Source of the DNA: an archaeon UBA583
GTDB taxonomy: Archaea > Nanobdellota > Nanobdellia > Woesearchaeales > UBA583
Reading direction: 5' to 3'
Assembly: GCA_002506365.1 (NCBI GenBank)
Contig: DAXK01000025.1
Location: 34,692-98,691 of the forward strand
DNA length: 64,000 bases
Position numbers and translations under genes: made by a program. How positions within the stretch are numbered: the stretch's first letter is position 1; the number at the start of each line of letters is the position of its first letter. Positions 2,906-63,263 of this stretch are shown here, piece by piece. The notes below the pieces were generated by a model. The model searched no databases. It had not been told where the DNA came from and worked only from the letters and a program-made list of their open reading frames with translations.

Positions 2906-5900
2906 ATGGATTTAAAAAAATCTCTCAAAATAATATTTATGCTAACTTTATTTTTTCAAGTAAGTTACGCATTTGATTTAGATTCATTAATTAACTCTTA
3001 CGATTATACTTTTGAAAACGGAGTGGTTAATGTAGTACAAACGCAAGATAGTTTAATTGATACAAATCAAAATAACCTAACAGATAAATTAGAATTTAAT
3101 ATTGAAACAAATATATTTAATTCTAATTTAACAAATTACACAATAAGTGTGATATTAGATAATAAAAATTATATCTCCGAATATGTGAATTTAGAATCGA
3201 CTTTTTCAAAGATTCAAATTCCAACATATTTATTAAATGAAAATCAATATAATTATACAATTGAAATTAAAAATCAATTTAATTCAGTTGTATTTAGAAT
3301 GGATAATTATCAAACACAAATTTTAGATAATTACGAAACAGGATTTAATTTATATTCAACAATAGACAAATTAAATTTAGAAAATGAAATTCAATTCGAC
3401 TTAGAGTTTTCACAAATTCCAGAATTTGAAAATAAACAAGTTACTTTATTTTTAGAATACAATAACCAAACTTTAATTTATTCAAAAGAAGTTTTATTTG
3501 AAAATCCAAATCAATTAATTTCATTTAATATTCCAAAAGAAAATATTTTCCAAACAAAACACACAGGGAAATTTAAGTTAAAATCAATACTAGTAGATAA
3601 TAAAAGAATTTATTTAGATAATTATACAACAGATAGTTATTCATACATTGAATTTACAAATAAAAGTTTTATCACATCACAAGATTACTCTTTAGAAGAT
3701 TTAGATAATAATTCTTTATATGAAAAACTAAATATTAATTTTAACTTAAACATTGTTGAACAATCAAATTATGAAATAACATTTTCATTATTTGACTCAA
3801 ACAATAATTTTGTAAATACTTATTCAATTCAAAATGAATTAACAAATACAAATAATATTTTAACTCACTCATTTGACGGTGAAGAATTTTACAGAACTAA
3901 AATTAATGGACCATACACAATTAAAAATATTTATTTAAAACAAATAAATCAAAATTTAAATACTTCAGAAGTTATTGATGTTTCAAAAAATGAAATTACA
4001 ACTGAGCAAATTTCATACTTACAATTTGAAAAACCAACATTACCTGAATTAAATACTAAATTAATTACAACATTTGATGAATTAACAAATCAAACACAAT
4101 TAATTGTAATTGTAAATAACAATGGAACTTTCCCAGCATTTAATTTTAATTTAGAATTATTTAACTCAAAAGAATTTAGTTTCTCAGATAATATAATGTT
4201 TTTAAATACTGGTGAATCCATTAATTATTCATTTATATTTAACAATACAAATGGGTCTGAATTATATACATCATTAATTGATTCAAATAACTTTGTTGAT
4301 GAACTAAATGAAGAAAACAATCAAAACCAAATTAAAGGAATTGAACAAATTATTGACCAATCAGTTTGTGGACTAGAAAAATTACCAAACAAATTGATTT
4401 TTATAGATAGTAATTGTAATCCAATTATAAACGCTAGAGTAAATCTTCTAAAAGAAACTGGAACATATATTAAATATCTAAGAACAGACTCAAACGGAAT
4501 TGTTGACTTTTCAAATGATATATCACTAAATGGAAATAAATTCCAAATTGACCACAATGGAGCTAAATTTACAACAGAAATAAATAGTTTATTCAATGGT
4601 TCAATAATCCAATCTAAAGCATATTCATTAAAAGTTCTAGATAACAATAATGAACCAATTAAAAATGCGAGAATTAATCTCCTAAAAGAAACTGGGACAT
4701 ACATTAAATATCTAAGAACAAATGAAAATGGAACAGTTACTTTCCAAGTTGTACCAAACGCAAATATGAAGTTCCAAATTGATTACAACGGAGCCAAATA
4801 TTCAATGCCAGTAAACAACGATAATCAAATTAAAATTAATACAAAAGGATATTCACTAAAAGTTCTAGATAACAATAATGGACCAATTTCAAATGCAAGA
4901 GTAAATCTCCTAAAGGAATCAGGAACATATATTAAATATCTAAGAACAGATTCAAACGGAATTGTAACTTTCCAAAATGTACCAAATGCAAAACAACAAT
5001 TTCAAGTTGATTATAACGGAGCTAAATATTCAATGTATGTAAACAATGACACTCAAATTACAATTAATACTAAAGCATACTCTCTAAAAGTTTTAGATAA
5101 TAATAATGAACCAATTAATAATGTAAGAGTAAATCTCCTAAAAGAATCAGGAACATACATTAAATATCTAAGAACAGATTCAAACGGAATTGTAACTTTC
5201 CAAAATGTACCAAATGCAAAACAACAATTTCAAATTGATTACAACGGAGCTAAATATTCGATGTATGTAAACAATGACACTCAAATTACAATTAATACTA
5301 AAGCATACTCCCTAAAAGTTTTAGATAACAATAACAAACCAATTTCAAATGCGAGAGTAAATCTCCTAAAAGAAGCTGGAACATATATTAAATATTTAAG
5401 AACAGACACAAATGGAATTGTCACGTTTCAAAATGTGCCTAATGCAAAACAAAAATTCCAAATTGACCACAACGGAGCTAAATATTCAATACCAGTAAAT
5501 AATGACACTCAAATTACATTAAACACATTAGGATATTCATTAAAAGTTTTAGATAACAATAATGAACCAATTAACAATGTAAGAGTAAACTTACTAAAAG
5601 AATCTGGAACTTACATCAAATATTTAAGAACAGATTCAAATGGAGTTGTAACTTTCCAAAATGTACCAAATGCAAAACAACAATTTCAAATTGACCATAA
5701 TGGAGCAAAATATTCAATACCTGTAAATAACAATTCACAAATCATTATGAATACAAAGGGTTATTCATTAAAAGTTTTAGATAACAATAATGAACCAATT
5801 AATAATGTAAGAGTGAATTTACTAAAAGAGTCTGGGACTTACATCAAATATTTAAGAACAGATTCAAATGGAGTTGTAATTTTCCAAAATGTACCAAATG

Positions 5901-6484
5901 CAAAACAACAATTTCAAATTGACCACAATGGAGCAAAATATTCAATGCCAGTAAATAATGATACACAAATCACAATAAATACAAAAGCATATAGTTTGAA
6001 CCTAATTAATAGTCAAAACCTACCAATTAATAATGCTAGAGTAAATTTATTAAAATCATCAGGAACATACATCAAATACAAAAAAACAAATACAAATGGA
6101 ACAGTAATATTCCAAGTGGTACCAAATGCTAATCACAAATTCCAATTAGATTATAATGGAGATAAATATACTAGCCAATCAGTCTCAAACACAGAACCAA
6201 TTAGTGTTCAAACTTTTTCATTCGGAGGATTATTTGTTGATAGTTCATGTACTCCAACTGAAAATGTAAGATTTAATTTATTAAAAGAATCTGGAACATA
6301 TGTAAAAAATTTAAAAACTAATGGTTTAGGGGAAGGATCTTTTGAAGTTGTTCCAAATGCAAATATGAAAATTCAAGTTGACCATAATAGTCTTAAAGAA
6401 ACAACACAAGTATATTCAATTAATCAAAATACAAATTTAAATATTCAAACTTCACACAATTTAGGATGTTATAATAATTCTTAA
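2906..6484 (+). CDS. Secreted 1192-aa adhesin-like protein: signal peptide, CARDB-like segment, nine tandem carboxypeptidase-regulatory-like (prealbumin-fold) repeats
   Basis: ORF track. N-terminal hydrophobic signal IIFMLTLFFQVSYA. CARDB-like segment VNNNGTFPAFNFNLELFNS...DELNEENN. Repeat consensus YSLKVLDNNNEPINNVRVNLLKESGTYIKYLRTDSNGIVTFQNVPNAKQQFQIDYNGAKY. Confidence 0.85.
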   Translation: MDLKKSLKIIFMLTLFFQVSYAFDLDSLINSYDYTFENGVVNVVQTQDSLIDTNQNNLTDKLEFNIETNIFNSNLTNYTISVILDNKNYISEYVNLESTFSKIQIPTYLLNENQYNYTIEIKNQFNSVVFRMDNYQTQILDNYETGFNLYSTIDKLNLENEIQFDLEFSQIPEFENKQVTLFLEYNNQTLIYSKEVLFENPNQLISFNIPKENIFQTKHTGKFKLKSILVDNKRIYLDNYTTDSYSYIEFTNKSFITSQDYSLEDLDNNSLYEKLNINFNLNIVEQSNYEITFSLFDSNNNFVNTYSIQNELTNTNNILTHSFDGEEFYRTKINGPYTIKNIYLKQINQNLNTSEVIDVSKNEITTEQISYLQFEKPTLPELNTKLITTFDELTNQTQLIVIVNNNGTFPAFNFNLELFNSKEFSFSDNIMFLNTGESINYSFIFNNTNGSELYTSLIDSNNFVDELNEENNQNQIKGIEQIIDQSVCGLEKLPNKLIFIDSNCNPIINARVNLLKETGTYIKYLRTDSNGIVDFSNDISLNGNKFQIDHNGAKFTTEINSLFNGSIIQSKAYSLKVLDNNNEPIKNARINLLKETGTYIKYLRTNENGTVTFQVVPNANMKFQIDYNGAKYSMPVNNDNQIKINTKGYSLKVLDNNNGPISNARVNLLKESGTYIKYLRTDSNGIVTFQNVPNAKQQFQVDYNGAKYSMYVNNDTQITINTKAYSLKVLDNNNEPINNVRVNLLKESGTYIKYLRTDSNGIVTFQNVPNAKQQFQIDYNGAKYSMYVNNDTQITINTKAYSLKVLDNNNKPISNARVNLLKEAGTYIKYLRTDTNGIVTFQNVPNAKQKFQIDHNGAKYSIPVNNDTQITLNTLGYSLKVLDNNNEPINNVRVNLLKESGTYIKYLRTDSNGVVTFQNVPNAKQQFQIDHNGAKYSIPVNNNSQIIMNTKGYSLKVLDNNNEPINNVRVNLLKESGTYIKYLRTDSNGVVIFQNVPNAKQQFQIDHNGAKYSMPVNNDTQITINTKAYSLNLINSQNLPINNARVNLLKSSGTYIKYKKTNTNGTVIFQVVPNANHKFQLDYNGDKYTSQSVSNTEPISVQTFSFGGLFVDSSCTPTENVRFNLLKESGTYVKNLKTNGLGEGSFEVVPNANMKIQVDHNSLKETTQVYSINQNTNLNIQTSHNLGCYNNS
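4394..6481 (+). repeat. Nine in-frame tandem repeats of about 228 bp (76 aa) inside the 1192-aa gene
   Basis: I verified unit starts at 4622, 4850, 5078, 5306 and 5990, an exact 228-bp period. Units 3/4 and 6/7 are almost identical at nucleotide level over more than 100 nt. The first and last two units are diverged. Confidence 0.95.
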
Positions 6485-15408: not shown

Positions 15409-16029
15409 TTAATCATCTGAAATTGTATCACCATCAAAAACTGCATCCTCTTCATCCTCAGTTTTCTCCATAACTTTTTTCCTAAAATTTGGATTTTTCA
15501 TATTTCTCTCATAATCCACCTTCTTTTTAGCAGCTAGAATTTCACGAATATAAATTCTCCCAACATCTTCTTCCTTAATCTCTAACTTATCAATATACTC
15601 TTGAACTTTTTCATAAGAATCAGACTCAATTTCAAGCATAGGTTCTAAACCTACATACTCATCTAAATCAAAAACAATATCATCCAATCTATACTCAGTT
15701 CTATACTTTCTTAAATCAAAAATTTTAATATAACCTAAATCATTCAAAATTCTATGCATTGTTTTAAAATTTGAAATTTTAACACCAATTTCATCTCTCC
15801 CCACAATACTTTGAACTGACTTTTTCTTCCCCTTTAGATTTAAATAAATATATTTACCCTTTTGACGAATCCTTAAGGCTTTTCCTTGTCTTGATAAATC
15901 TCTATCAGGTGTATCAAATCTATAATCTATAACCTTCCCAGTAAAAATCTTCTTAGCCCCTAACGCTTCAATTTTCGCAATAATTTCTTCCTTATTAATA
16001 TGTCTAATTTTAACTTCGATTTCTTTCAT
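15409..16029 (-). CDS. CYTH-domain protein (CyaB-like class IV adenylyl cyclase / triphosphate tunnel metalloenzyme) with an acidic C-terminal tail
   Basis: N-terminal EIEVK (ExExK signature), then LRIRQKG, RDEIGV, RTEY and the EPMLEIE strand pattern typical of CYTH. Confidence 0.8.
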   Translation of the reverse strand: MKEIEVKIRHINKEEIIAKIEALGAKKIFTGKVIDYRFDTPDRDLSRQGKALRIRQKGKYIYLNLKGKKKSVQSIVGRDEIGVKISNFKTMHRILNDLGYIKIFDLRKYRTEYRLDDIVFDLDEYVGLEPMLEIESDSYEKVQEYIDKLEIKEEDVGRIYIREILAAKKKVDYERNMKNPNFRKKVMEKTEDEEDAVFDGDTISDD

Positions 16030-16053
16030 TTTTAATCCCCTATTAAAAATGAC

Positions 16054-16143
16054 ACCATTTCACATTGTGAAATCTGTGTCTAAAATTTCTTCACACCTTT
16101 TCAAATCTTTGATTTGATAATGGCTTAGGAATCTATGATTCCT
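16054..16143. repeat. Hairpin-repeat locus 1: a 17-bp palindrome, one family unit, and an extra 7-bp hairpin
   Basis: ATTTCACATTGTGAAAT (16057-16073). Family unit ACCTTTTCAAAT-CTTTG-ATTTGATAATGGCTTAGGA (16095-16129). AGGAATC-TAT-GATTCCT (16127-16143). Confidence 0.7.
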
Positions 16144-16246
16144 TGATTGTGAAGACATTCATTTTTTAATTTTATAATTTTAAAACTCCTCAAACAAATG
16201 TTGGGAATTTTCCTCAATAATTTTTTAATTTAAACTAATACTAACT

Positions 16247-17197: not shown

Positions 17198-17221
17198 AAT
17201 AAATATTTCATTTTATATAAA

Positions 17222-17307
17222 ACTTTGTCAAATCTCTGATTTGACGAAGGGTTAGAAAATGTAATTTTATTCACTTTGTCAAATTTTTTATTTAACAACC
17301 GCTTAAA
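17222..17307. repeat. Hairpin-repeat locus 2: two family units 51 bp apart
   Basis: ACTTTGTCAAAT-CTCTG-ATTTGACGAAGGGTTAGA (17222-17256) and ACTTTGTCAAAT-TTTTT-ATTTAACAACCGCTTAAA (17273-17307). Confidence 0.75.
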
Positions 17308-17312
17308 AATTT

Positions 17313-18440
17313 TCAATTCTTTATATCTTCCTTTTTAATTTCAAATCTTGACCCTAAATAAATCTTATTTACTTTACCTACTCTAATTCTCTTTAGAATC
17401 TTCTTATTATCCAATTTAGATATAATCTTACTCAAATTTGATTTTGTAAGTTTTGGTAAAAAATTTAAAATATCATACTGTGAAATCCCATCATTTTCCT
17501 TAACACAAGATACAACTAACTTCTCATTATCAGTTAAAAATCTCGCCATAACTTCTCGATACTCCTCTTCATTAAACCCAGGTTTTTCAGGCTCAATAGA
17601 CAAATCATCTTTTGTTAAAATTTCAATATCTTCCTCAGACACTTTATCTTGAACATCATCATAAGACACATCATCTGAACTACTTTTATCTTCTTTAACT
17701 CCTTCAGCAATAATTTTCTTTTTAACATCAGCTTTCACCCCTTTTTTAGCCTTAAAAGTTCGATTCAAACTTATGTTAACATTAAATAATCTAAACTTAC
17801 TTGAAAAAATAAACATTAAAACTAAAATTACTAAAGTAGATAACAAAACAACTCCAGATACAATAATTATTAAATTATCAGTCCAAAATTTATTATTTTT
17901 AATATCATCAATTGAATTTAAATTTGAAAACTCTAAACGAAATAATTCCTCTCTATCAATATTAGATAATTCCCAATTAAAACTACCATCATCTAAAACT
18001 CTATAATCTCTTGGAAAAAAAGTTTCAATATTCCCAATATTCTCAACTAATTCAACATTCATAATTAATTTATCAACTACAAAATTAAAATTTGAATATA
18101 ACTCAAAAGCATTTTTTTCATAAATATTTTGAGTAATTGTCTCTGAAACAAATCTTATCTTAAAAGAACTATTTCTCACAGTATGTGGATTTACAATAAT
18201 GTAATCTCCAGCAATTGAATATTTAATTTTATCTCCATAATTTGAAATTAATGACTCAACTTTCGCATCACTAGGTTTTTCAAAAGAAAAACTTCTATAA
18301 GACTCAGTTTCATCAAAAATAAATTCATAATCAAACACAGAATAAGTAGAATAAATATCTACATTCACATTAACATTGGCAGCATTTAACCCTGCAAATG
18401 TTAAAAAAAAAATTAAAAAACTAAATAATTGCTTAAGCAT
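17313..18440 (-). CDS. Membrane-spanning protein: signal peptide, ectodomain, TM helix, acidic linker, C-terminal winged-helix (MarR/TrmB-like) DNA-binding domain
   Basis: Signal peptide FSFLIFFLTFAGLNA. TM helix IIIVSGVVLLSTLVILVLMFIF. C-terminus LTDNEKLVVSCVKENDGISQYDILNFLPKLTKSNLSKIISKLDNKKILKRIRVGKVNKIYL has a wHTH pattern. Confidence 0.6.
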   Translation of the reverse strand: MLKQLFSFLIFFLTFAGLNAANVNVNVDIYSTYSVFDYEFIFDETESYRSFSFEKPSDAKVESLISNYGDKIKYSIAGDYIIVNPHTVRNSSFKIRFVSETITQNIYEKNAFELYSNFNFVVDKLIMNVELVENIGNIETFFPRDYRVLDDGSFNWELSNIDREELFRLEFSNLNSIDDIKNNKFWTDNLIIIVSGVVLLSTLVILVLMFIFSSKFRLFNVNISLNRTFKAKKGVKADVKKKIIAEGVKEDKSSSDDVSYDDVQDKVSEEDIEILTKDDLSIEPEKPGFNEEEYREVMARFLTDNEKLVVSCVKENDGISQYDILNFLPKLTKSNLSKIISKLDNKKILKRIRVGKVNKIYLGSRFEIKKEDIKN

Positions 18441-35746: not shown

Positions 35747-36937
35747 TTAACCTAAAAAATTAAGATTTAATTTGGCTCCTTTTGATTTGCCAGAATTATG
35801 TATTTCAGCTTTAGCTCTAAATGAATCCATATGTTTATTTAAAGCAGCATTTGCAATCTTATCTGGAATATATTCAGCAAACCAAAAAGGATTTGAATCT
35901 TCATTTCTATCAAGTTGATAATTTTTATTAGATTTTATTAAAGGTAAATATACATTTTCTCTAAAAAATTTAATTTCTTCACATGCTTGTAATTCCTGGG
36001 CATTTTGCATATTATTTTTATATTTAAAAGGTTCAAATTTAATTAAATCAACTAAGTAAAGATTCATTAAAATATTTATAGTCCAAATAATTAATTTAAA
36101 ATTTTTTGATTTTGGATTAATATCATATATAATTAACTTTAAAGTATTTAATGACTCACGATTGTTATTATTATATTTATCAGTTCCTTTTTTATCAACT
36201 ATTTTAAATTTTTGTTCCCCTATTTTCTCCCCATAAATCGCATAAAATAATGTTTTTAAAAAAGGTTCAGAATATCTATAGTTTGAATTTTCCAAATTAT
36301 CAATATATCTTTCAATAGCTTTTTTAAATTCATACATTGCAGAGTTTTTAGATTTAATATATTTATTAAAATCCACATAAGAATTATACTCAACTAATGG
36401 ATTATTAACACTACTTGAATTACTCCCATCAGTAAATCTTGGTTTTTTTCTAATTAGATTTACTTTATTCCAAATACTTGGATCTACTGGTTTAACACTA
36501 CTTCCAGACTTACCTGGCCTTCGCATAAAAAATGGAAATAATGTCCAAAATGCAGGGTCATAAGTTTTAGTTTCATCAGTAATCATCCACACATTATCGT
36601 TTGAATCATAATATTCTGTATCATGAACACTTTCACCAAAAAGAACATATTCTCCAAATTTTTTTTCATAATCACCAATATTTCCATTAATAATCATTTC
36701 ATAAAATTTTCTTAAACCCAAACTATCTATATCATTAATCCATTTAGGCATTGATTGTTTTTTTCTTTGTTTTGTTTTCAAACCAGCATTAGCAGTTCCA
36801 GGTAAAATTGTAGCTGCAGCAATTCCTGCAACCCCCATAGCCCCTTTTTTTAAAAAATCACGTCGACTAGAATTAATATTTTCATCTGGAATATCATGTC
36901 CCATATTTTGTAAAGCAGATTTTATTTTTTCAAACAT
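35747..36937 (-). CDS. Twin-arginine (Tat) signal-bearing secreted protein, function unknown
   Basis: SRRDFLKKGAMGVAGIAAATILPGTANAG is a textbook Tat signal. I recognised no family in the mature part. A TATA box lies about 26 nt upstream of the ATG, so the transcript looks leaderless. Confidence 0.7.
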   Translation of the reverse strand: MFEKIKSALQNMGHDIPDENINSSRRDFLKKGAMGVAGIAAATILPGTANAGLKTKQRKKQSMPKWINDIDSLGLRKFYEMIINGNIGDYEKKFGEYVLFGESVHDTEYYDSNDNVWMITDETKTYDPAFWTLFPFFMRRPGKSGSSVKPVDPSIWNKVNLIRKKPRFTDGSNSSSVNNPLVEYNSYVDFNKYIKSKNSAMYEFKKAIERYIDNLENSNYRYSEPFLKTLFYAIYGEKIGEQKFKIVDKKGTDKYNNNNRESLNTLKLIIYDINPKSKNFKLIIWTINILMNLYLVDLIKFEPFKYKNNMQNAQELQACEEIKFFRENVYLPLIKSNKNYQLDRNEDSNPFWFAEYIPDKIANAALNKHMDSFRAKAEIHNSGKSKGAKLNLNFLG

Positions 36938-36969: not shown

Positions 36970-36993
36970 TTTGTGACTTTTAAAAGTCACAAA
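36970..36993. promoter_or_regulatory. Perfect 24-bp palindrome between the surface giant and the Tat-protein gene, abutting the latter's TATA box
   Basis: TTTGTGACTTTT|AAAAGTCACAAA read directly. TTTATATA follows on the minus strand. Confidence 0.7.
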
Positions 36994-45457: not shown

Positions 45458-46000
45458 ATGAAACAAAAAATAATACTATACATTGCAATGTCTATCGACG
45501 GATTTATAGCAACACCAGACCTCTCAGTTAATTGGTTAGATAAATATAATAACTCTGGAGACGATTTTGGATATAATCAATTTATAAAAAATATTGATAC
45601 TCAAATATTAGGAGAAACAACATATAATCAATTTAAAGAAGTCTATAATAATGAAAACAAATTAAATACAATCGTGTTTTCAAAAAATAAAACATCAACA
45701 GACAATAATAATAACAATAACAATAATAAACTAAAATTTGTAAATCAAACCCCAACCCAACTAATTAACTCACTAGATAAAAACACTCATAAAAATATTT
45801 GGATTGTTGGTGGAGCAAATATAACAAATCAATTTTTAAAAGAAAATTTAATTGATGAAATCATATTATCAATAATGCCTGAAATTTTAGGAAGTGGAAT
45901 TAGACTATTTTCAAATGATAATAATATTTCAAATATTTTCAAATTAAAAAATATAAATAAATTTAAAAAAAATGTAATTCAATTACACTACACCAAATAA
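45458..46000 (+). CDS. RibD C-terminal / dihydrofolate-reductase-like domain protein with a poly-Asn insert
   Basis: ILYIAMSIDGFIATPD, IWIVGGANI and DEIILSIMPEILGSGIRLF. There is an inserted N-run. Confidence 0.7.
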   Translation: MKQKIILYIAMSIDGFIATPDLSVNWLDKYNNSGDDFGYNQFIKNIDTQILGETTYNQFKEVYNNENKLNTIVFSKNKTSTDNNNNNNNNKLKFVNQTPTQLINSLDKNTHKNIWIVGGANITNQFLKENLIDEIILSIMPEILGSGIRLFSNDNNISNIFKLKNINKFKKNVIQLHYTK

Positions 46001-46096
46001 ATTTAAAAAAATCATATACATATACATTTAAAATTAACAAACATAGTTTCAAATTTAAATCATAAAATTATAAACAAATAAAAACAAGTAATTCCA

Positions 46097-47359
46097 GTGG
46101 AAATATTTAGTCTATTAATAATTATAATATTAGCAATTATAACAGGAATAATTACTGGATTAATTCCTGGACTACATATTAATTTTATTTCAATACTAAT
46201 TTTAATTAATTTTCAAACATTTCAAAAAATTCTCCCAATTGAACAATTAATTATATTTATTATAATAATGAGTCTAACTCACACATTTATTGACTTTATT
46301 CCATCAATAATGTTTGGTATTCCAAATAGTGATACAGCCATGTCAATTTTACCAGGTCAACAAATGATTTTAAATGGTCAAGGCTATAAAGCAATATTTT
46401 TATCAAATTTAGGTAGTCTTTTTGGAGTAATTACATCACTTTTTATTGGAATAATATTCTATTTTAATTTAGAAACATTTTATAATCAAATTCAACCGCT
46501 ATTACCCTATATACTAGCAATTATTGTGTGTTTAGGTATTTTTTTAGAACCCAATTTTGACTCTAAATTTAGAGCAATTATGCTAATATTATTTACAGGG
46601 GGGTATGGGATTTTTCTTCTTAATTCAACTCAACTAAATCAACCATTACTAATATTATTTACAGGAGTTTTTGCAAACGCAGCAATAATAAATTCATTAC
46701 TTACAAAATCTCAAAAAATACCTCAACAAGATTATAAATTACCTAAATTAAAACAAACCATAACTAAAAAATATTTAAAATCAATTCTAAATGGAACAAT
46801 TTCATCAAGTATTTGTTCAATAACTCCAGCAATAGGAAATATACAAGCAGCAACAATCTCAACAATTACATCATCAAAAAATAAAAAAACACAAAACCAA
46901 CAAGAAAATTCACAAGAAAATCAACAAAATTTCATAAGTTTAATTTCATTAATTAATACAAATAACTTTATTTTAAGTCTTATAACATTTCTAACAATCT
47001 CTAAAGCAAGAAACGGAAGCATATTTGTAATATCTCAAATTACAAATACAATAACAATTAACCAAATAATTAAATTTTACTTAATAATACTAATTACAAC
47101 TCCAATAATTTTTTATTTAACTTTAAAAATTGGAAAATTTGCCATTAAAAAATTATCAAAACTAACTAAACAACTAAAACAAATTAATTTCACATTACTA
47201 ATACTTTTAACTATACAAATAACATACTTAGAAAGCTATTTTGGACTATTATGTTTAATCGGAGCAACATTATTAGGTTATTTGACAATTATATTAAATA
47301 TTAAAAGAATTCACCTATTATCTGCTTTAATTATACCAACGATAATAAATCTAATTTAA
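46097..47359 (+). CDS. Polytopic membrane protein, possibly TctA/DUF112-like
   Basis: GTG start. More than 10 hydrophobic segments. GLIPGLH and ILPGQQ motifs are reminiscent of DUF112. A Q/N-rich central loop is present. Confidence 0.45.
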   Translation: MEIFSLLIIIILAIITGIITGLIPGLHINFISILILINFQTFQKILPIEQLIIFIIIMSLTHTFIDFIPSIMFGIPNSDTAMSILPGQQMILNGQGYKAIFLSNLGSLFGVITSLFIGIIFYFNLETFYNQIQPLLPYILAIIVCLGIFLEPNFDSKFRAIMLILFTGGYGIFLLNSTQLNQPLLILFTGVFANAAIINSLLTKSQKIPQQDYKLPKLKQTITKKYLKSILNGTISSSICSITPAIGNIQAATISTITSSKNKKTQNQQENSQENQQNFISLISLINTNNFILSLITFLTISKARNGSIFVISQITNTITINQIIKFYLIILITTPIIFYLTLKIGKFAIKKLSKLTKQLKQINFTLLILLTIQITYLESYFGLLCLIGATLLGYLTIILNIKRIHLLSALIIPTIINLI

Positions 47360-50340: not shown

Positions 50341-52536
50341 ATGTTTAACCAATTAAAAAAATCTAATATTTCTAAAAAAACAAAAAAAAACCAATTAGAT
50401 TCATTATTTTACCCTAAATCCATCGCAGTAATTGGAGCATCCAATGATATATCTAAAATTGGTGGATTCATATTTAAGCAAATTAAAAATAAAGCAAAAC
50501 ACATAATTCCACTCCCAATTAATCCAACATCACTAAAAGTTCAAAATATTGATGCTTATCAAAATATTCTAGCAATCCCACACAACCAAGAACCTGAATT
50601 AATTATCATTGCAATCCCTAAAAAATTTATTCTACAAACATTAGAACAAATTACTCAAACAAAAACAAAAAATATTGTAATTATTACAGCAGGATTTAAA
50701 GAAACTGGGAAACAAGGTAAAGAAGATGAAGATAAAATAAAACAAATCATCAAACAAAATAATTTAAATTTAATTGGTCCAAATTGTTTAGGATTTTTAA
50801 ATCCAGAAATTAACCTTAACTGTTCTTTTGCTAAAGATATACCACATTCAGGAGATATTGCTTTAATTTCACAATCTGGCGCAGTTATTGATGCAATTAT
50901 TGATTGGAGTTTTGAAAAAAGAATTGGATTCTCAAAAATTGTATCTCTAGGAAATATGGCAGGATTAGATGAATTAGAGATATTAAAATATTTAAAAAAT
51001 GATAAACAAACTAAATCAATTGTATTTTATATGGAAACATTAGAAAAAGGAAAAGAATTTGGAAAACTATTAAAACAAATTTCAAAAACAAAACCAGTAA
51101 TCATTATTAAACCTGGTAACTCACAAAATGCTAAAAAAGCAATTGGTAGTCACACAGGATCATTAGCTCAAAATTCAACACTTTCACAAACATTAATTAA
51201 AGAAAATAATGGTATTTTAGTTGATAATTTAAACGAATTATTTAATATTTTAATTGGAATAAATAATATTGATAAAATTAAACAAACTAATGATATTGAA
51301 CAAATAAATAATACTATAATTTTAACAAATGCGGGAGGACCTGGAGTAATTGCAACAGACGAATTAGAAAATTCAAATTTAAAATTATACTCTCTAACTC
51401 AAAAACAAAAACAAAATATACAAAAAAACCTACCGTCTCAAGCAAGTATAAATAATCCTATTGATATAATTGGAGATGCTAAATCTGACAGATACACAAA
51501 TACACTAAAAGAATTAATAAAAATTAAAGATTTAAATAATATTATCATTTTATTAACTCCTCAAATTATGACTGATTGTGAAAATATTGCTAAATCAATA
51601 ATTGACATATCAAAAAAAACTAACATAAATATTATGGTATCATTTTTAGGAAATAAACAAGTAAAACATTCTAAATTATTATTTAATAATTCAAATTTCC
51701 CTGAATTCGACACACCAAACGACATCATTACAACTCTTAACAAATTAATTAATTATAAATCTTATAATTATTTAGATTCAAACATTGAAAATAAAAAACT
51801 TAAATTTGATGAGAAAAAAATTAAAAATATTCAATCAAAATTAAAAAATAAACAAGGATTACTAGATCAAGAATTAACTAATCAAATTTTAAAAACATTA
51901 AATATAACCCCATTTAATAAACAATTCATTAAATCAGAACAAGACATATTTAAACTTAAAATTGATCCAAAATTAACTTATGTAATAAAAGCTGACGCTA
52001 AAGAATTAATCCATAAAAAAGAATTTAATGCAATTAAATTAAATATTAATTCAACTAACTATAAAGATGAAATAAATTTAATGATTAAAGAAATTTCGAA
52101 AACTTTGACAAATATTTCATCTGACAACAACTTAGATATCTCCAATTCATTAATATCAAAACAATTTACAATCACAATAGAAGAACAAATAAAAGGAATT
52201 GAAACTATTGTAGGACTTAAGCAAGATGAAAGCCTAGGAAATTTTATTATGTTTGGTATGGGTGGAACTTATGTATCCATATTTAATGATGTAAACTTTA
52301 GTCAAACTCCCCTTACAAAAACTAAAACTAAACAACTAATTCAAAAATCAAAAGTTTCAAAATTATTAAATGGTTACCGTGGAGATAAACCTGTAAATAT
52401 TAAAGCTTTAGAAAATACAATTCAAAATATTTCATACATTCAAGAAATTTATCCAATGATTAAAGAAGTAGATTTTAATCCAATTATTTGTAATGAACAT
52501 GATTGTTATTTAGTAGATGTAAAATTAATATTATAA
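50341..52536 (+). CDS. acd: Acetyl-CoA synthetase (ADP-forming), fused alpha-beta form
   Basis: N-terminal CoA-binding FYPKSIAVIGAS, phospho-His loop GSHTGSLA, and a C-terminal ATP-grasp portion. Confidence 0.8.
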   Translation: MFNQLKKSNISKKTKKNQLDSLFYPKSIAVIGASNDISKIGGFIFKQIKNKAKHIIPLPINPTSLKVQNIDAYQNILAIPHNQEPELIIIAIPKKFILQTLEQITQTKTKNIVIITAGFKETGKQGKEDEDKIKQIIKQNNLNLIGPNCLGFLNPEINLNCSFAKDIPHSGDIALISQSGAVIDAIIDWSFEKRIGFSKIVSLGNMAGLDELEILKYLKNDKQTKSIVFYMETLEKGKEFGKLLKQISKTKPVIIIKPGNSQNAKKAIGSHTGSLAQNSTLSQTLIKENNGILVDNLNELFNILIGINNIDKIKQTNDIEQINNTIILTNAGGPGVIATDELENSNLKLYSLTQKQKQNIQKNLPSQASINNPIDIIGDAKSDRYTNTLKELIKIKDLNNIIILLTPQIMTDCENIAKSIIDISKKTNINIMVSFLGNKQVKHSKLLFNNSNFPEFDTPNDIITTLNKLINYKSYNYLDSNIENKKLKFDEKKIKNIQSKLKNKQGLLDQELTNQILKTLNITPFNKQFIKSEQDIFKLKIDPKLTYVIKADAKELIHKKEFNAIKLNINSTNYKDEINLMIKEISKTLTNISSDNNLDISNSLISKQFTITIEEQIKGIETIVGLKQDESLGNFIMFGMGGTYVSIFNDVNFSQTPLTKTKTKQLIQKSKVSKLLNGYRGDKPVNIKALENTIQNISYIQEIYPMIKEVDFNPIICNEHDCYLVDVKLIL

Positions 52537-54356: not shown

Positions 54357-55754
54357 TTATTTATTTAAAGTCTCAATAATTCTCATCCCTGAAAACATTT
54401 TATCTTCACAAAATTTATCAGAAATTACTTGAATTCCAACAGCAACCTTATCACCGTCATAATCAATAACAGCACCATTAACAACACCACCACAAACTCC
54501 AGCCAAATTTAAAGGTGTTGTAAAAGCATCATACGCATACATTGCTTCAACTGAAACATCTGAACCAATTTTATGAGGTAACATTGGAGTTACAGGAGTT
54601 AAAATACAATCTACATTCTCAAACGCTTTTGAAAATTCTTCAGCAATCATTTCCTTAACCTTTAATGCTTTTTTATAATAAGCCCCATCAAATTCAGATT
54701 GAGTAATAGCTTGACCCCCATAAATACGTCGTAAAACTTCCTCACCAGCCGTATCTTCAATTTTTTCACCATACTTAACACCATCAAATTTACGAGTTCC
54801 AGAATAAAATTCAGCGTAAACAATAGGATAATAAGCTTGAACAGCTAATTCAATATTATTAACTGAAACCTCAACAACCTCATAACCTTCCGTTTTTAAT
54901 TTTTCAATATTTGAATTAAATACTTGACTTATCTCATTATCAGAAATCATATCAACAAATTCTTTAATAATTCCAAATTTAGGTTTAAAAGATTCTTTTT
55001 TTTCCACATATGATAAAATATCTCTATCAAAAGTTGTTGCATCGTTACTAGATAACCCTGAAATCACTTCCATACATAAAGCAGACCCATAAACATCTTT
55101 TGAGAAAGGTCCAATTTGATCTAAACTCATAGATAAATCTACTAAACCATATCTAGACACTCTTCCAAATGATGGTTTAACTCCCACAACATTACAATGA
55201 GACGCTGGATTACGAATACTTCCACCAGTATCACTCCCTAAACTGATATCACAAAAATCTGCTGCCACAGCTGCTGCAGACCCACTAGAAGACCCTCCTG
55301 GAACTCTTCCAACACTAAAAGGATTATCTGTAGCTCCAAAAGCACTTGTTTCACCACTTGCACCATTAGCAAATTCATCATTATTTACATTACCCAATAT
55401 AATTCCACCTTCTGCCACAATATTTTTAATAACATCAGCATCAAATGACCCTTTATAGTTCTCTAAAGTCTTTGAAGCGCAAGATACAATCATATCTGTA
55501 ACAGAGATGTTAGATTTAACTAAAAAACATAAACCAAATAATTTACCTAAATTATCCCCATTTTCCCTTTTTTTATCTAAATCTGCTGCAATTTCAAGAA
55601 CATTATTACTTTTTTCTAAAACAATATTAAATTTACTATTATTTTTCTCAATTTCTGCTAAAAAACTTTTAGCATTATCAACACAAGTCAATTCTCCGCT
55701 TTTTAAAAGCTCAATTTTAGACTTAATATCAGTATTATTAACCATAATTAACAT
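54357..55754 (-). CDS. gatA: Amidase-signature enzyme, Glu/Asp-tRNA amidotransferase subunit A
   Basis: GGSSSGSAAAVAA and GSDTGGSIRNPA amidase signature. The ATG at 55745 is the likely leaderless start. Confidence 0.85.
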   Translation of the reverse strand: MLIMVNNTDIKSKIELLKSGELTCVDNAKSFLAEIEKNNSKFNIVLEKSNNVLEIAADLDKKRENGDNLGKLFGLCFLVKSNISVTDMIVSCASKTLENYKGSFDADVIKNIVAEGGIILGNVNNDEFANGASGETSAFGATDNPFSVGRVPGGSSSGSAAAVAADFCDISLGSDTGGSIRNPASHCNVVGVKPSFGRVSRYGLVDLSMSLDQIGPFSKDVYGSALCMEVISGLSSNDATTFDRDILSYVEKKESFKPKFGIIKEFVDMISDNEISQVFNSNIEKLKTEGYEVVEVSVNNIELAVQAYYPIVYAEFYSGTRKFDGVKYGEKIEDTAGEEVLRRIYGGQAITQSEFDGAYYKKALKVKEMIAEEFSKAFENVDCILTPVTPMLPHKIGSDVSVEAMYAYDAFTTPLNLAGVCGGVVNGAVIDYDGDKVAVGIQVISDKFCEDKMFSGMRIIETLNK

Positions 55755-55774
55755 AATTTAAACCCATATTTAAA

Positions 55775-55858
55775 ACTTTGTCAAATTTTAATTTGACAAT
55801 GGCTTAGATATTGTAAATTTCTTGACTTTGTCAAATTTTAATTTGACAATGGCTCAGA
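55775..55858. repeat. Hairpin-repeat locus 3: two near-identical 34-nt family units with a 50-bp period
   Basis: ACTTTGTCAAAT-TTTA-ATTTGACAATGGCTTAGA (55775-55808) and the same sequence with CTCAGA (55825-55858). Both have perfect 9-bp arms. Confidence 0.85.
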
Positions 55859-56382
55859 AACATTTAATATTATTTAATTTTATGATATTAAAATTTAAAA
55901 TTAAATTAATAGATAAATAAATCATAAACATAATTTAAATTAAATCTCAAAAATATTTCTTAAAAATAATCAAAAACTTCTCCTGGAATAAAAAATTATT
56001 AATAAATAAATATGAATGGATATGTTTTTATTTTAGACAAAAAAAGATTAATCAAAAATTTAAGATATATTTAATCTTAAATTTAAAAATTAGTTAAAAC
56101 TTCGTATGGAAATATCAGATACCATAAAAATAACTCTTAAATTTCCTTTAAATTACAATTATTCTAAATTTATAAGCTAATATTTCGTTTGGAAAAAAAT
56201 AATGAATTAAATTTAAAATTAAATTGGATTTATAATGTTTTTAAATATAAAAAAATATGTTTAAACATTAATATTTATGTTAATGATTCTTTGAAATCTC
56301 CAACTAAAAAAATTTGAACATCCTATAAATTTTAAATTTAATAATAACAAATATTTTTAAAAAAACTAAAACTAAAAATTCT

Positions 56383-59597: not shown

Positions 59598-60035
59598 TCA
59601 ATAAAATCTATCAATAAATGGTTTAATTTTATCTTTACACTTCTCAATCGAAAATACAAACTCATATTCATTAATCTCATCAATTCCTATCCACTCATAC
59701 CCTAAATGTTCAGATGATAAAACTGGTTTTCCTTTTTCAAATTCATAATTATCACAAAAAGATAAACCAAAAATAAAAGTAAATTCAGGTTTATTAGATG
59801 GATTAGCATAGTAATTAATTGTATGAATTTCATTTAAATTAATTCCTAATTCTTCAACCCCTTCTCGTTTTAAACCATCAATTGAATCCTCTCCAAAATC
59901 ATAACTCCCTCCAACAAAATCCCATAAATTAGCACTTTCAGATTTATAATCAGATCTTTTTAAAATTAAAATTTTTTTAGTTTCTTTATTATAAACAACA
60001 CACTTTTGAGCAAAATAAACATTCTTTAAAGCCAT
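59598..60035 (-). CDS. Nudix hydrolase
   Basis: Nudix box GGSYDFGEDSIDGLKREGVEELGI. Confidence 0.85.
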   Translation of the reverse strand: MALKNVYFAQKCVVYNKETKKILILKRSDYKSESANLWDFVGGSYDFGEDSIDGLKREGVEELGINLNEIHTINYYANPSNKPEFTFIFGLSFCDNYEFEKGKPVLSSEHLGYEWIGIDEINEYEFVFSIEKCKDKIKPFIDRFY

Positions 60036-60150: not shown

Positions 60151-60867
60151 ATGATAAAAGAAAACTCAATTCAAATTGACATACTAAGAAAATTTAAACA
60201 CCACGAAAAATTAAAATATTCTCAAATCCATAACAAACAATTAGCATCAAGTTCTCAATTTGATTACCATTTAAAACAATTAATAATAAACCAATTAATT
60301 GAAAAATCAAAAGATGATTACTACATTTTAACATACAAAGGACTTCAACTAATCTCAGAAATTGATGGGACAGAAATTAAAATTAAAAAAAAACCATTTG
60401 TATGTGGCTTTTTACTAGCATATAATGAAAATGGAGAAATTCTACTAAATATTCGTAAAAAGCAACCTTTTCTTAATTTTTACAATGTTCCAGGTGGAAA
60501 AGTTGATCTTGGTGAAACCACAAAACAATGCGCTATAAGAGAATTTACTGAAGAAACTGGAATAGAATGTAAATCTGTAAAACTTAAAGCAATCTGTGAA
60601 AAATTAAGTTACAATGAAAATGAAGAATTAATTCACCACATTATAGGATATTTCTACACAACAAATAATTCATATGGAACTTTAGTTAAAGAAAATGATG
60701 AAGGGAAAAACGAATGGATAACTTTAAACAAATTAAAAAATAAATTAAAATTCCCCGAATTAGAATACTTAATACCAAAATTAATTGAAAATAATGATAA
60801 TATTTTAATTGAAAATTATAAAAGAATTGTAAAAAATAACATAATGAACTTTGAAATAATAAACTAA
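60151..60867 (+). CDS. Winged-helix DNA-binding domain fused to a Nudix hydrolase domain
   Basis: N-terminal IDILRKFKHHEKLKYSQIHNK...HLKQLIINQLIEK (wHTH pattern). Nudix box GGKVDLGETTKQCAIREFTEETGI. Confidence 0.75.
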   Translation: MIKENSIQIDILRKFKHHEKLKYSQIHNKQLASSSQFDYHLKQLIINQLIEKSKDDYYILTYKGLQLISEIDGTEIKIKKKPFVCGFLLAYNENGEILLNIRKKQPFLNFYNVPGGKVDLGETTKQCAIREFTEETGIECKSVKLKAICEKLSYNENEELIHHIIGYFYTTNNSYGTLVKENDEGKNEWITLNKLKNKLKFPELEYLIPKLIENNDNILIENYKRIVKNNIMNFEIIN

Positions 60868-62317: not shown

Positions 62318-62803
62318 ATGAATTCAAAAAATAAAAATAATCCAGAAAAAATAAATCAAAAAAATTCAAAATATGGAGAAAATGGATTTAGAAATATTTC
62401 AGCAGTTGTAATAATAAATAAAAATAATAAAAAATTACTATTCCAACAAAGACCAAAAGAAACCAAATGGAATCCAGATGTATGGGGATTTTTTGGAGGT
62501 AAATTTGAAAATAATGAAACTAAAGAACTTTGCGCGATTCGTGAAATAAAAGAAGAAACAAATCTAAATTTAAACATAAATAAATTAAAATATATTAATA
62601 TGTATATTTATGAAAATACTAATTGTTATTTTTTTTATTACTTTTTAGAAGAATCTGAACTAAAACATTTTAAACTACAGGAAGGACAAGACTTTTGCTG
62701 GAAATCATACCATCAAAGTTTAGAACTTGACTTTGGAACAGTAAAAAACTGGCAACTAAACTTTCTAAACAATGAAATTAAAAACATATTAAAAATTAAT
62801 TAA
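62318..62803 (+). CDS. Nudix hydrolase (variant box)
   Basis: GGKFENNETKELCAIREIKEETNL, with the box Gly replaced by Asn. Confidence 0.8.
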   Translation: MNSKNKNNPEKINQKNSKYGENGFRNISAVVIINKNNKKLLFQQRPKETKWNPDVWGFFGGKFENNETKELCAIREIKEETNLNLNINKLKYINMYIYENTNCYFFYYFLEESELKHFKLQEGQDFCWKSYHQSLELDFGTVKNWQLNFLNNEIKNILKIN

Positions 62804-63192: not shown

Positions 63193-63263
63193 AAAGTTTC
63201 ACATTGAAACTTTGTAAAATTCTTTGATTTTACAACAGATTAGGAATTCATCAAAATATTCTT
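63193..63263. repeat. Hairpin-repeat locus 4: small hairpin, one family unit with a compensated arm, and a second hairpin
   Basis: AAAGTTTCA-CAT-TGAAACTTT (63193-63213). ACTTTGTAAAAT-TCTTTG-ATTTTACAACAGATTAGGA (63209-63245). AGGAAT...ATTCTT (63242-63263). Confidence 0.7.

Follow-up and report, generated by a model that had tools for sequence, protein, structure and literature searches.

A family of small hairpin repeats was analyzed in a 64,000-nt stretch of DNA from the archaeon UBA583 (Woesearchaeales; contig DAXK01000025.1, positions 34,692 to 98,691), in the following termed the window, in which two adjacent copies are located directly upstream of the amidase gene gatA. We consider it probable that the family is a lineage-specific, non-autonomous dispersed palindromic repeat of the REP/RPE/BOX kind with two hairpins per unit, which spread by insertion and head-to-tail duplication and of which some copies were drawn into promoters as a B recognition element (BRE). 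The strongest evidence for such a REP/RPE-like repeat is the in-frame insertion into a coding sequence, together with filled and empty sites among close relatives. In bacteria and organelles, small selfish palindromic repeats have been studied in depth, and DPANN archaea are usually regarded as too streamlined for repeats.

The window sequence originates from a bioreactor metagenome (JGI 3300003107, ENA ERZ922519, run SRR1023996, WGS AYRE01). Its G+C content is 25%, it encodes archaeal histones, TFB, a family-B DNA polymerase, aIF2-alpha and RNase P p30, and its closest named protein relatives are annotated as Nanoarchaeota or Woesearchaeota. Approximately two-thirds of the genes are found on the minus strand. 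Contigs of relatives (the L192 to L219 series) were collected via gatA and MetAP homologues of graded identities, the gene tables of the lineage covered approximately 250 kb of fetched loci, and the covariance models R1 and R2 were used for scoring, with one model built from ten units.

An earlier note on this DNA had described two 34-nt stretches upstream of gatA, 50 bp apart and different in one base, and this was seen again on re-reading the sequence: 55775-55808 reads ACTTTGTCAAATTTTAATTTGACAATGGCTTAGA, and 55825-55858 is identical except for C instead of T at 55855. Both copies have the perfect 9-bp arms TTGTCAAAT/ATTTGACAA, the loop TTTA and the subsequent TGGCT(T/C)AGA, exactly as the note had it. 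The exact palindrome was found at two places in the window and in none of 100 dinucleotide-preserving shuffles. With regards to the proposed seven units at four loci, the copies at 16095, 17222, 17273 and 63209 are real, but the four loci hold only six units (1 + 2 + 2 + 1). The seventh unit of the window (52099-52149) is located inside the coding sequence of an acetyl-CoA synthetase (acs), and an eighth was found 3.5 kb before the window start (L197, 3586-3647). The source genome therefore contributes eight units in approximately 80 kb, and both further copies and pairing covariation were detected when the search was extended beyond the named loci to the window, its flank and the relatives.

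Read on the minus strand, which is the gatA sense, a unit of 50 to 51 nt consists of (T)CAAG, a first hairpin (HP1; AGAAAT(n)-loop-(n')ATTTCT), the linker AAGCCr, a second hairpin (HP2; TTGTNAAAT-loop-ATTTN'ACAA) and AGT(T). HP2 is the palindrome of 22 to 35 bp, while HP1 appears, for example, as AGAAATC-GAA-GATTTCT (L197), AGGAATC-ATA-GATTCCT (CYTH locus) or AGAAAAA-TAC-TTTTTCT (L193). The earlier note had proposed conserved pairing next to a conserved single-stranded tail. The pairing is indeed conserved and covaries, but the tail (GGCTTAGAAAT, plus strand) is mostly the 3' arm of another hairpin: on the minus strand its bases read ATTTCT-AAGCC, and ATTTCT pairs with the upstream AGAAAT to form HP1. 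Units are single or arranged in head-to-tail arrays in which tandem units abut, and the unit length of 50 to 51 nt explains the tandem period of 50/51 bp. The seven units of the window are as follows.

55775-55824, minus strand: gatA-proximal unit, 50 nt (CAAGAAATTTACAATATCTAAGCCATTGTCAAATTAAAATTTGACAAAGT), with HP1, linker AAGCCA, HP2 and AGT; 61 bits and 74.9 bits.
55825-55874, minus strand: gatA-distal unit, head-to-tail with the proximal unit and with the same HP2, HP1 degenerate; 56 bits.
17222-17272, minus strand: MetAP-proximal unit, 51 nt; 55 bits and 65 bits.
17273-17322, minus strand: MetAP-distal unit, 50 nt; 57 bits and 58.9 bits.
16095-16145, minus strand: single unit in the MetAP-CYTH spacer; 54.6 bits and 70 bits.
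52099-52149, minus strand: unit inside the coding sequence of the ADP-forming acetyl-CoA synthetase (50341-52536, plus strand); 38 bits with R1 and 58 bits with R2.
63209-63263, minus strand: single unit 3' of aIF2-alpha, in the convergent spacer with a Nudix gene; 52 bits.

In the MetAP-distal unit, the HP1 5' arm overlaps the end of the DUF7343 gene located upstream, namely its final codons and its stop codon (17313-17315). The HP2 arms of the unit at 63.2 kb are TTGTAAAAT/ATTTTACAA, and an orthologous copy is present in the relative L195.

Two further palindromes were observed beside the single units. One (16057-16073, ATTTCACAATGTGAAAT) is located just downstream, in gene sense, of the unit in the MetAP-CYTH spacer and ahead of the Shine-Dalgarno-like AGGGGA leader of CYTH; the other (63193-63213, AAAGTTTCA-ATG-TGAAACTTT in minus-strand reading) overlaps the end of the 63.2-kb unit. 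The arms of both look like the G-type HP2 arms TTGTGAAAT/ATTTCACAA with the order permuted, and a similar sequence, GTGAATGTGAAAC, comes after the units of L193. These palindromes may be remnants or rearranged units.

The pairing of the two hairpins was scored in two alignments. In A5 (MAFFT, 18 units from the window and the relatives, 14 scored pairs), standard pairs were found in 89.8% of the cells, compared to 33 to 56% with the 3' partners slid by one to three columns, and seven pairs changed on both sides (25 cells), which none of 500 shuffles reached. In the model-fitted alignment A6, 93.3% of the cells were paired and eight pairs covaried. Both HP1 and HP2 covary, and at HP2 position 5 all of C-G, G-C, U-A and A-U occur. 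Compensatory HP2 variants are TTATGAAAT/ATTTCATAA in L195 and ATGTAAAAAC/GTTTTTACAT in L216, and the paired C-to-A and G-to-T change reported for the 63.2-kb copy is present in the sequence. As single-stranded RNA or DNA, the units fold into HP1 and HP2 with z values of -2.3 to -4.8 (gatA-proximal unit, RNA and DNA: -2.8 and -4.1). The loops vary as freely as had been stated, with HP2 loops from 3 nt (L199_c, L216) to 16 nt; in L195_b, the long HP2 loop itself continues the stem. Folding also suggested a lower stem (AAGC/GUUU) to close HP2, which was discarded, since GTTT follows AAAGT in only about half of the copies. In gene sense, seven G·U cells were counted against five A·C cells, and as this is no excess, the pairing does not identify an RNA strand and is equally compatible with DNA. 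Symmetric changes of a palindrome are also possible by template switching, so the covariation is good evidence for the hairpins but not proof of selection.

The covariance model that the earlier note had called for separates the family clearly from its background. Built from ten units, it scores the window copies at 52 to 61 bits (E of approximately 1e-8 to 1e-10), whereas the reverse strand of true units stays at or below 26 bits and unrelated sequence at or below 18 bits (best in the window approximately 18). An exact-pattern scan with ACTTTGTCAAAT-N3-6-ATTTRAC yielded 69 loci in genome contigs, none of them related, with the source genome not among the GTDB representatives scanned. In metagenome contigs, of which those listed did not include the source sample, it yielded at least 119 loci, none of them related among the matches listed. 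Viral contigs were scanned with the conserved core TTTCTAAGCCNTTRTNAAAT; all 14 matches scored 23.5 bits or less with R1 and are thus chance matches, and no viral contig has a unit. Rfam returned nothing relevant over the whole window at the gathering threshold, with no family near its gathering score, and nothing relevant at permissive E-values around three loci.

The exact-pattern scan also picked up an unrelated repeat family, CCTCCCTTTACTTTGTCAAATTGAAAGATTTGACCCCTTTT, in many groundwater and sediment contigs (L075, L080, L103, L105, L110, L121, L162, L165, L166, L172 and L182) and in the genome loci L028 and L055 (metagenome-assembled genomes of Deltaproteobacteria). In L165 and L166, two copies are 82 nt or 572 nt apart. 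This family looks like a bacterial hairpin repeat or a CRISPR-type repeat.

The comparison of orthologous sites reveals a turnover of units between close relatives. The site upstream of gatA is filled in the window, L192 (88% gatA identity) and L194 (84%), and empty in L195 (77%); the units of L192 and L194 keep the 50-bp period and have the arms TTGTTAAAT/ATTTAACAA, with one copy decaying. Decaying copies are represented by the distal unit in L192 and by a truncated unit in L193. At the site upstream of MetAP, two units are present in the window, one in L216 (82%), and none in L215 (94%), L218/L219 and L217 (69%). L215 and L218/L219, the latter in the MetAP cluster of at least 90% identity, are the closest relatives, and yet their MetAP site is empty. 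The unit in the MetAP-CYTH spacer is part of an insertion of approximately 125 nt that is found in the window only and is absent from L215, L216 and L217. Conversely, a unit at the CYTH 3' site is found only in L218/L219, and the window is empty there. At the SecY 3' site, L193 has three units (one truncated), while the window and L198 have none. A small hairpin with a T-tract follows SecY in both filled and empty versions, and the L193 units come behind it, which identifies the units as additions. The window and L195 both have the unit 3' of aIF2-alpha, and their HP2 sequences differ by compensatory changes.

L198 (66% identity, 13 kb scanned) and L217 (69%, 16 kb scanned) yielded no units, and judging from these contigs the family apparently vanishes in relatives below approximately 70% protein identity. 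It is limited to a narrow clade of Woesearchaeota/Nanoarchaeota-like (DPANN) archaea with tiny genomes.

An exact insertion was found in acs. According to the protein alignment, the unit is an exact in-frame insertion of 51 nt and 17 amino acids, antisense to the coding sequence, and 17 codons equal the unit length. The site is filled in the window (insert peptide KTLTNISSDNNLDISNS) and in L199 (KTLTGLSPDNGLGISDS), and a clean gap is found in L192, L193 and the more distant L198. In L199, the DNA of the insert is a well-formed unit (GAGGAATC-GGA-GATTCCT AAGCCG TTGTCAGGT-GAAAG-ACCTGTCAA AGTTTT). Relative to solved ADP-forming acyl-CoA synthetases, the insert falls into a variable stretch.

Two features at gatA are needed to follow the connection of the units to promoters.

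55767-55774, minus strand: gatA TATA box (TTTAAATA), with the preceding AAAGT, the end of the unit, in BRE position.
54357-55745, minus strand: gatA, amidase family, 462 amino acids, probably leaderless (Pfam PF01425; 100% match to the 462-aa protein P0001).

As the earlier note had observed, AAAGT directly precedes the TATA box of gatA, and the ATG at 55745 follows 21 nt after TATA. The 462-aa product starting there is the form in the protein database, and the same ATG-TATA spacing at four other AAAGT + TATA promoters of the window supports the leaderless start. The recurrent promoter of the window consists of AAAGT directly before TATA (TTTAWATA or TTATATA) and an ATG 21 to 24 nt on, a distance from which largely leaderless mRNAs follow. 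Five promoters of the strict form AAAGT + TTTAWATA are present in the window, and in two of them (gatA and MetAP) this AAAGT belongs to a unit: the MetAP-proximal unit ends in AAAGT fused to TTTATATA (17214-17221), and the MetAP ATG (17191) lies 22 nt after TATA. L216 has the same AGT|TTTATATA junction at MetAP, and L218 has it at the gene that follows CYTH. The 3' end of the unit, CAAAGT, is identical to the BRE-like motif of this genome ahead of TATA boxes, and the register of unit and TATA is the same at three independent promoters (gatA, MetAP and the gene after CYTH in L218). Among approximately 12 independent loci, three promoters in one register are far from random. In the empty sites (gatA in L195, MetAP in L215), TATA is found at the same distance from the ATG with other sequence before it; TATA therefore pre-exists, and the unit came to abut it. 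From this we infer that the unit supplies the BRE and contributes to promoter function at these three promoters, and that either it prefers the T-rich TATA edge or only such insertions survive in spacers of 50 to 100 nt. No TATA follows at least 10 of the 16 copies; a promoter function can therefore not be the general role of the family, which agrees with the view of the earlier note that the repeats are not a simple promoter.

CYTH (15409-16029) is an exception to the apparently leaderless majority of genes in the window, in which TATA ends 21 to 24 nt before the ATG: its leader is longer, and a Shine-Dalgarno-like AGGGGA is located 7 nt ahead of its ATG (16030-16046). Both initiation modes hence coexist.

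All copies in the window, its flanks and every relative are oriented on the gatA strand, including those in convergent and divergent spacers and the antisense copy in acs. Either the majority direction of transcription or that of replication may underlie this bias, as the data fit both. The two ends of the unit (CAAGAAAT... and ...ACAAAGT) do not form inverted repeats, and a strict strand bias without terminal inverted repeats (TIR) or target-site duplication (TSD) resembles hairpin elements handled as single-stranded DNA, such as IS200/IS605 or REP/RAYT. The units probably spread by insertion and tandem duplication, and by analogy the hairpins would be preserved as targets of a structure-specific enzyme acting on single-stranded DNA in IS200/IS605 or RAYT style. 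The BRE contribution would then have arisen either from an insertion preference for the T-rich TATA edge or from selection in very short spacers. A bolder version, which we regard as speculative and rather doubtful, is an archaeal counterpart of REP/REPIN: a 50-nt element of Woesearchaeales, copied via single-stranded DNA by an HUH-type or new enzyme, with a preference for the upstream edge of TATA and with CAAAGT as a portable BRE. If true, the element would in this way rewire the strength of promoters in genomes that have hardly any intergenic space.

The earlier note had offered a structured RNA or a structure-specific protein site as explanations. As an RNA, the unit would be a two-hairpin 3'-UTR (untranslated region) module on the gene-sense strand, acting as a terminator or insulator or as a 3'-end stabilizing or processing signal ahead of the next promoter. 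Most intergenic copies do lie 0 to 110 nt past the stop codon of a co-oriented gene (LeuRS-like, DUF7343, MetAP, aIF2-alpha, SecY, Ham1, CYTH), three copies are located in convergent spacers, both helices covary, and the window and L195 have the aIF2-alpha 3' copy at a conserved position, with compensatory changes. U-rich tracts often come after HP2, and a gene-sense hairpin with a downstream T-tract is found at most copies except the gatA pair, L199_a and the acs copy; T-tracts are common everywhere at 75% A+T. Nothing favours RNA over DNA, however. The gatA pair and L199_a are located in divergent spacers without a co-oriented upstream gene, the only mRNA known at the acs copy runs antisense to it, G·U cells (seven) do not outnumber A·C cells (five), and no Rfam family matches. 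SecY has its own hairpin and T-tract whether filled or empty, the closest relatives lack units at the same genes, a unit accompanies only approximately 10% of the genes, and the stems share sequence and not structure alone. Archaeal termination is generally driven by a U-tract and aCPSF1, which also counts against a hairpin terminator. We therefore judge an RNA function to be unlikely.

A DNA site for a structure-specific protein is compatible with a dispersed palindromic repeat; the insertion behavior had been overlooked. In another rival explanation, HP2 would be the palindrome to which a dimeric archaeal transcription factor binds beside BRE/TATA, as an operator or upstream activating site, controlling gatA, MetAP and others, with tandem sites five helical turns apart for cooperative binding. 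The half-sites are strongly conserved in sequence (TTGTNAAAT), HP2 lies directly upstream of BRE/TATA in identical register at three promoters, and the tandem spacing is 50 to 51 bp. Against this, the half-sites are 3 to 16 bp apart, a range that a DNA-binding dimer of fixed geometry would not tolerate, and position 5 takes all four bases but always in complementary pairs, which independent reading of half-sites would not require. Besides the copies without TATA, three are located in convergent spacers and one in a coding sequence; the 50-bp period is simply the unit length, with the "spacer" being the second covarying hairpin; and the closest relatives do without the site at the same genes. 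An operator was ruled out as the identity of the family on the variable spacing, the complementary changes and the copies outside promoters, and we hold it to be distinctly improbable. Chance or low-complexity palindromy at 25% G+C, or an assembly artefact, has a negligible probability. Short palindromes are plentiful in AT-rich DNA, and the large exact-pattern scans gave many unrelated single matches, but these chance matches lack the tail and HP1, the 100 shuffles gave no match, and the models score units at 50 to 77 bits compared to at most 24 to 26 bits for unrelated sequence and the reverse strand. The same loci are furthermore present in three independent assemblies (JGI, ENA, Logan).

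Several points weigh against the dispersed palindromic repeat that we prefer. Coverage of the source genome amounts to approximately 80 kb, which limits the evidence, and the exact-pattern matches listed elsewhere were all single, tailless, chance-like and from unrelated bacteria. No transposase Pfam match, and no other mobilizing gene, was found among the called genes in approximately 250 kb of the lineage. TIR, TSD and a GTAG/CGTC tag are likewise absent; in the filled and empty pairs, neither a TSD nor a target motif was seen, as the flanks are too diverged and show only a loose T-rich 3' flank. Mobility is deduced from presence and absence between species, with no insertion caught within a population. 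The presence pattern of the acs copy needs two gains, or one gain and a precise loss. The aIF2-alpha 3' copy was kept with compensatory changes at 77% gatA identity, and a functional element would look the same. Finally, symmetric arm changes can come from template switching instead of selection.

The units were compared with known repeat systems. REPs are found mainly downstream of genes, can form head-to-tail dimers and are sometimes inside genes (PMC3733652). The units share with REP/REPIN families that they are short imperfect palindromes with conserved flanks, dispersed, extragenic and mostly downstream of genes, in unidirectional or convergent spacers; that they are lineage-specific, with the hairpin kept by compensatory change; and that head-to-tail dimers and intragenic copies occur occasionally (PMC3733652). 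HP2, with 22 to 35 bp, falls into the 20 to 40 bp of a REP palindrome, and eight units in approximately 80 kb, with more in the relatives, correspond to its many dispersed extragenic copies. In contrast to REPs, the units have no GTAG/CGTC tag on either strand but the flanks AAGCCr (5') and AGT(T) (3'), two different hairpins instead of one, AT-rich stems and an archaeal host. Unlike REPINs, their arrays are head-to-tail only, without inverted doublets, and no RAYT (Y1 HUH tyrosine transposase) was found in the gene tables of approximately 250 kb. In archaea, REPINs have reportedly not been detected (bioRxiv 10.1101/2021.07.10.451892).

The hallmark of Rickettsia palindromic elements (RPEs) is their in-frame insertion into housekeeping genes, where they are translated as an extra peptide (PMC10969869). 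The acs copy, with 51 nt and 17 amino acids, is a similar in-frame palindromic insert in a housekeeping gene of a reduced AT-rich genome. RPEs are, however, approximately 100 to 150 bp long and frequently intragenic, whereas the units have one intragenic site and roughly ten independent intergenic loci, and the two are unrelated in sequence. BOX elements of Streptococcus pneumoniae are modular and intergenic, with a boxB of approximately 45 nt repeated head-to-tail in variable number, and are predicted to fold. They differ from the units by three module types (A, B and C) and a bacterial host, again without sequence relationship; BOX elements are also mentioned in PMC10969869. Correia elements carry promoters, and for Correia/NEMIS of Neisseria, as promoter-bearing miniature inverted-repeat transposable elements (MITE), the likeness is a small repeat that is often located just upstream of genes and whose end provides promoter elements (PMC10969869). 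Correia has 26-bp TIR, a TA target duplication and a bacterial -35/-10, while the unit has neither TIR nor TSD and an archaeal BRE-like AAAGT beside a pre-existing TATA. Lacking the TIR and TSD that define a MITE, the unit also differs from the archaeal MITEs described so far, which are larger TIR elements (PMC10969869). With the subterminal hairpins of IS200/IS605 (single-stranded DNA, HUH Y1), it shares a hairpin plus conserved bases as the potential recognition unit, the lack of TIR and TSD, and a strong strand bias (PMC2817692). However, no tnpA/tnpB was found, every such insertion sequence or derivative is much longer than the unit, and no cleavage or target motif was identified.

A CRISPR mini-array was rejected as well. 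Such an array was looked for as direct repeats with unique spacers of at least 26 nt and usually cas genes; here, the 16-nt "spacer" is conserved and corresponds to HP1 of the following unit, no array exceeds three units, and the gene tables contain no cas genes. C/D-box, H/ACA and K-turn small RNAs and integron attC sites were dismissed on inspection of the alignment, in which the required boxes or R'/R'' motifs are absent. As the tested defining features of REP (GTAG/CGTC tag, inverted doublets), MITE (TIR, TSD), CRISPR and every Rfam family are lacking, the units are a member of none of these.

As a dispersed palindromic repeat, the family would be a tractable example of mobile hairpins shaping both gene expression and protein sequence in reduced archaeal genomes. 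It turns over between very close relatives and, in a central metabolic enzyme, can be translated as 17 additional amino acids. For annotation it is also a hazard, since one could easily take its copies for operators, terminators, small RNAs or mini-CRISPR arrays. An enzyme copying the family would be of wider interest.

The 640-bp divergent spacer between polB and gatA contains a second, different repeat. Three direct copies of TTCCAnnnGAARTWTT are located there on the minus strand (55973-55988, TTCCAGGAGAAGTTTT; 56096-56111, TTCCATACGAAGTTTT; 56179-56194, TTCCAAACGAAATATT). With at most one mismatch, the motif occurs ten times in the window compared to 1.7 expected, and the boxes are kept in the same spacer in L192, L194 and L195, the last of which has no hairpin units there. 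As the box core resembles the archaeal origin recognition box (ORB) or mini-ORB, the AT-rich spacer beside polB may be a replication origin. No orc1/cdc6 gene was seen near the spacer, and neither GC skew nor gene orientation flips there. The hairpin units themselves were discarded as origin-recognition boxes, being dispersed over at least 70 kb in a single orientation. A near-canonical, mini-ORB-like palindrome was additionally noticed at 46092-46107 on the plus strand (TTCCAGTGGAAATATT; TCCAGTGGAAA), in the spacer between the genes 45458-46000 and 46268-47359.

A perfect 18-bp palindrome, GTGACTTTTAAAAGTCAC, is located at approximately 36973-36990 (minus strand), 5 nt upstream of the TATA box TTTATATA ahead of the gene 35747-36937. 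It is a candidate operator, and its sequence is unrelated to the hairpin family. Within 3.5 kb, three genes encode Nudix hydrolases (59598-60035, 60151-60867 and 62318-62803), one of them fused to a winged-helix-like DUF7347 domain. Lastly, the gene at 2906-6484 (plus strand) encodes a large predicted surface protein of 1192 amino acids with faint Ig-like/CARDB-type Pfam matches, and between 4400 and 6400 it contains eight or nine tandem repeats of 228 nt (76 amino acids) with 60 to 85% identity.

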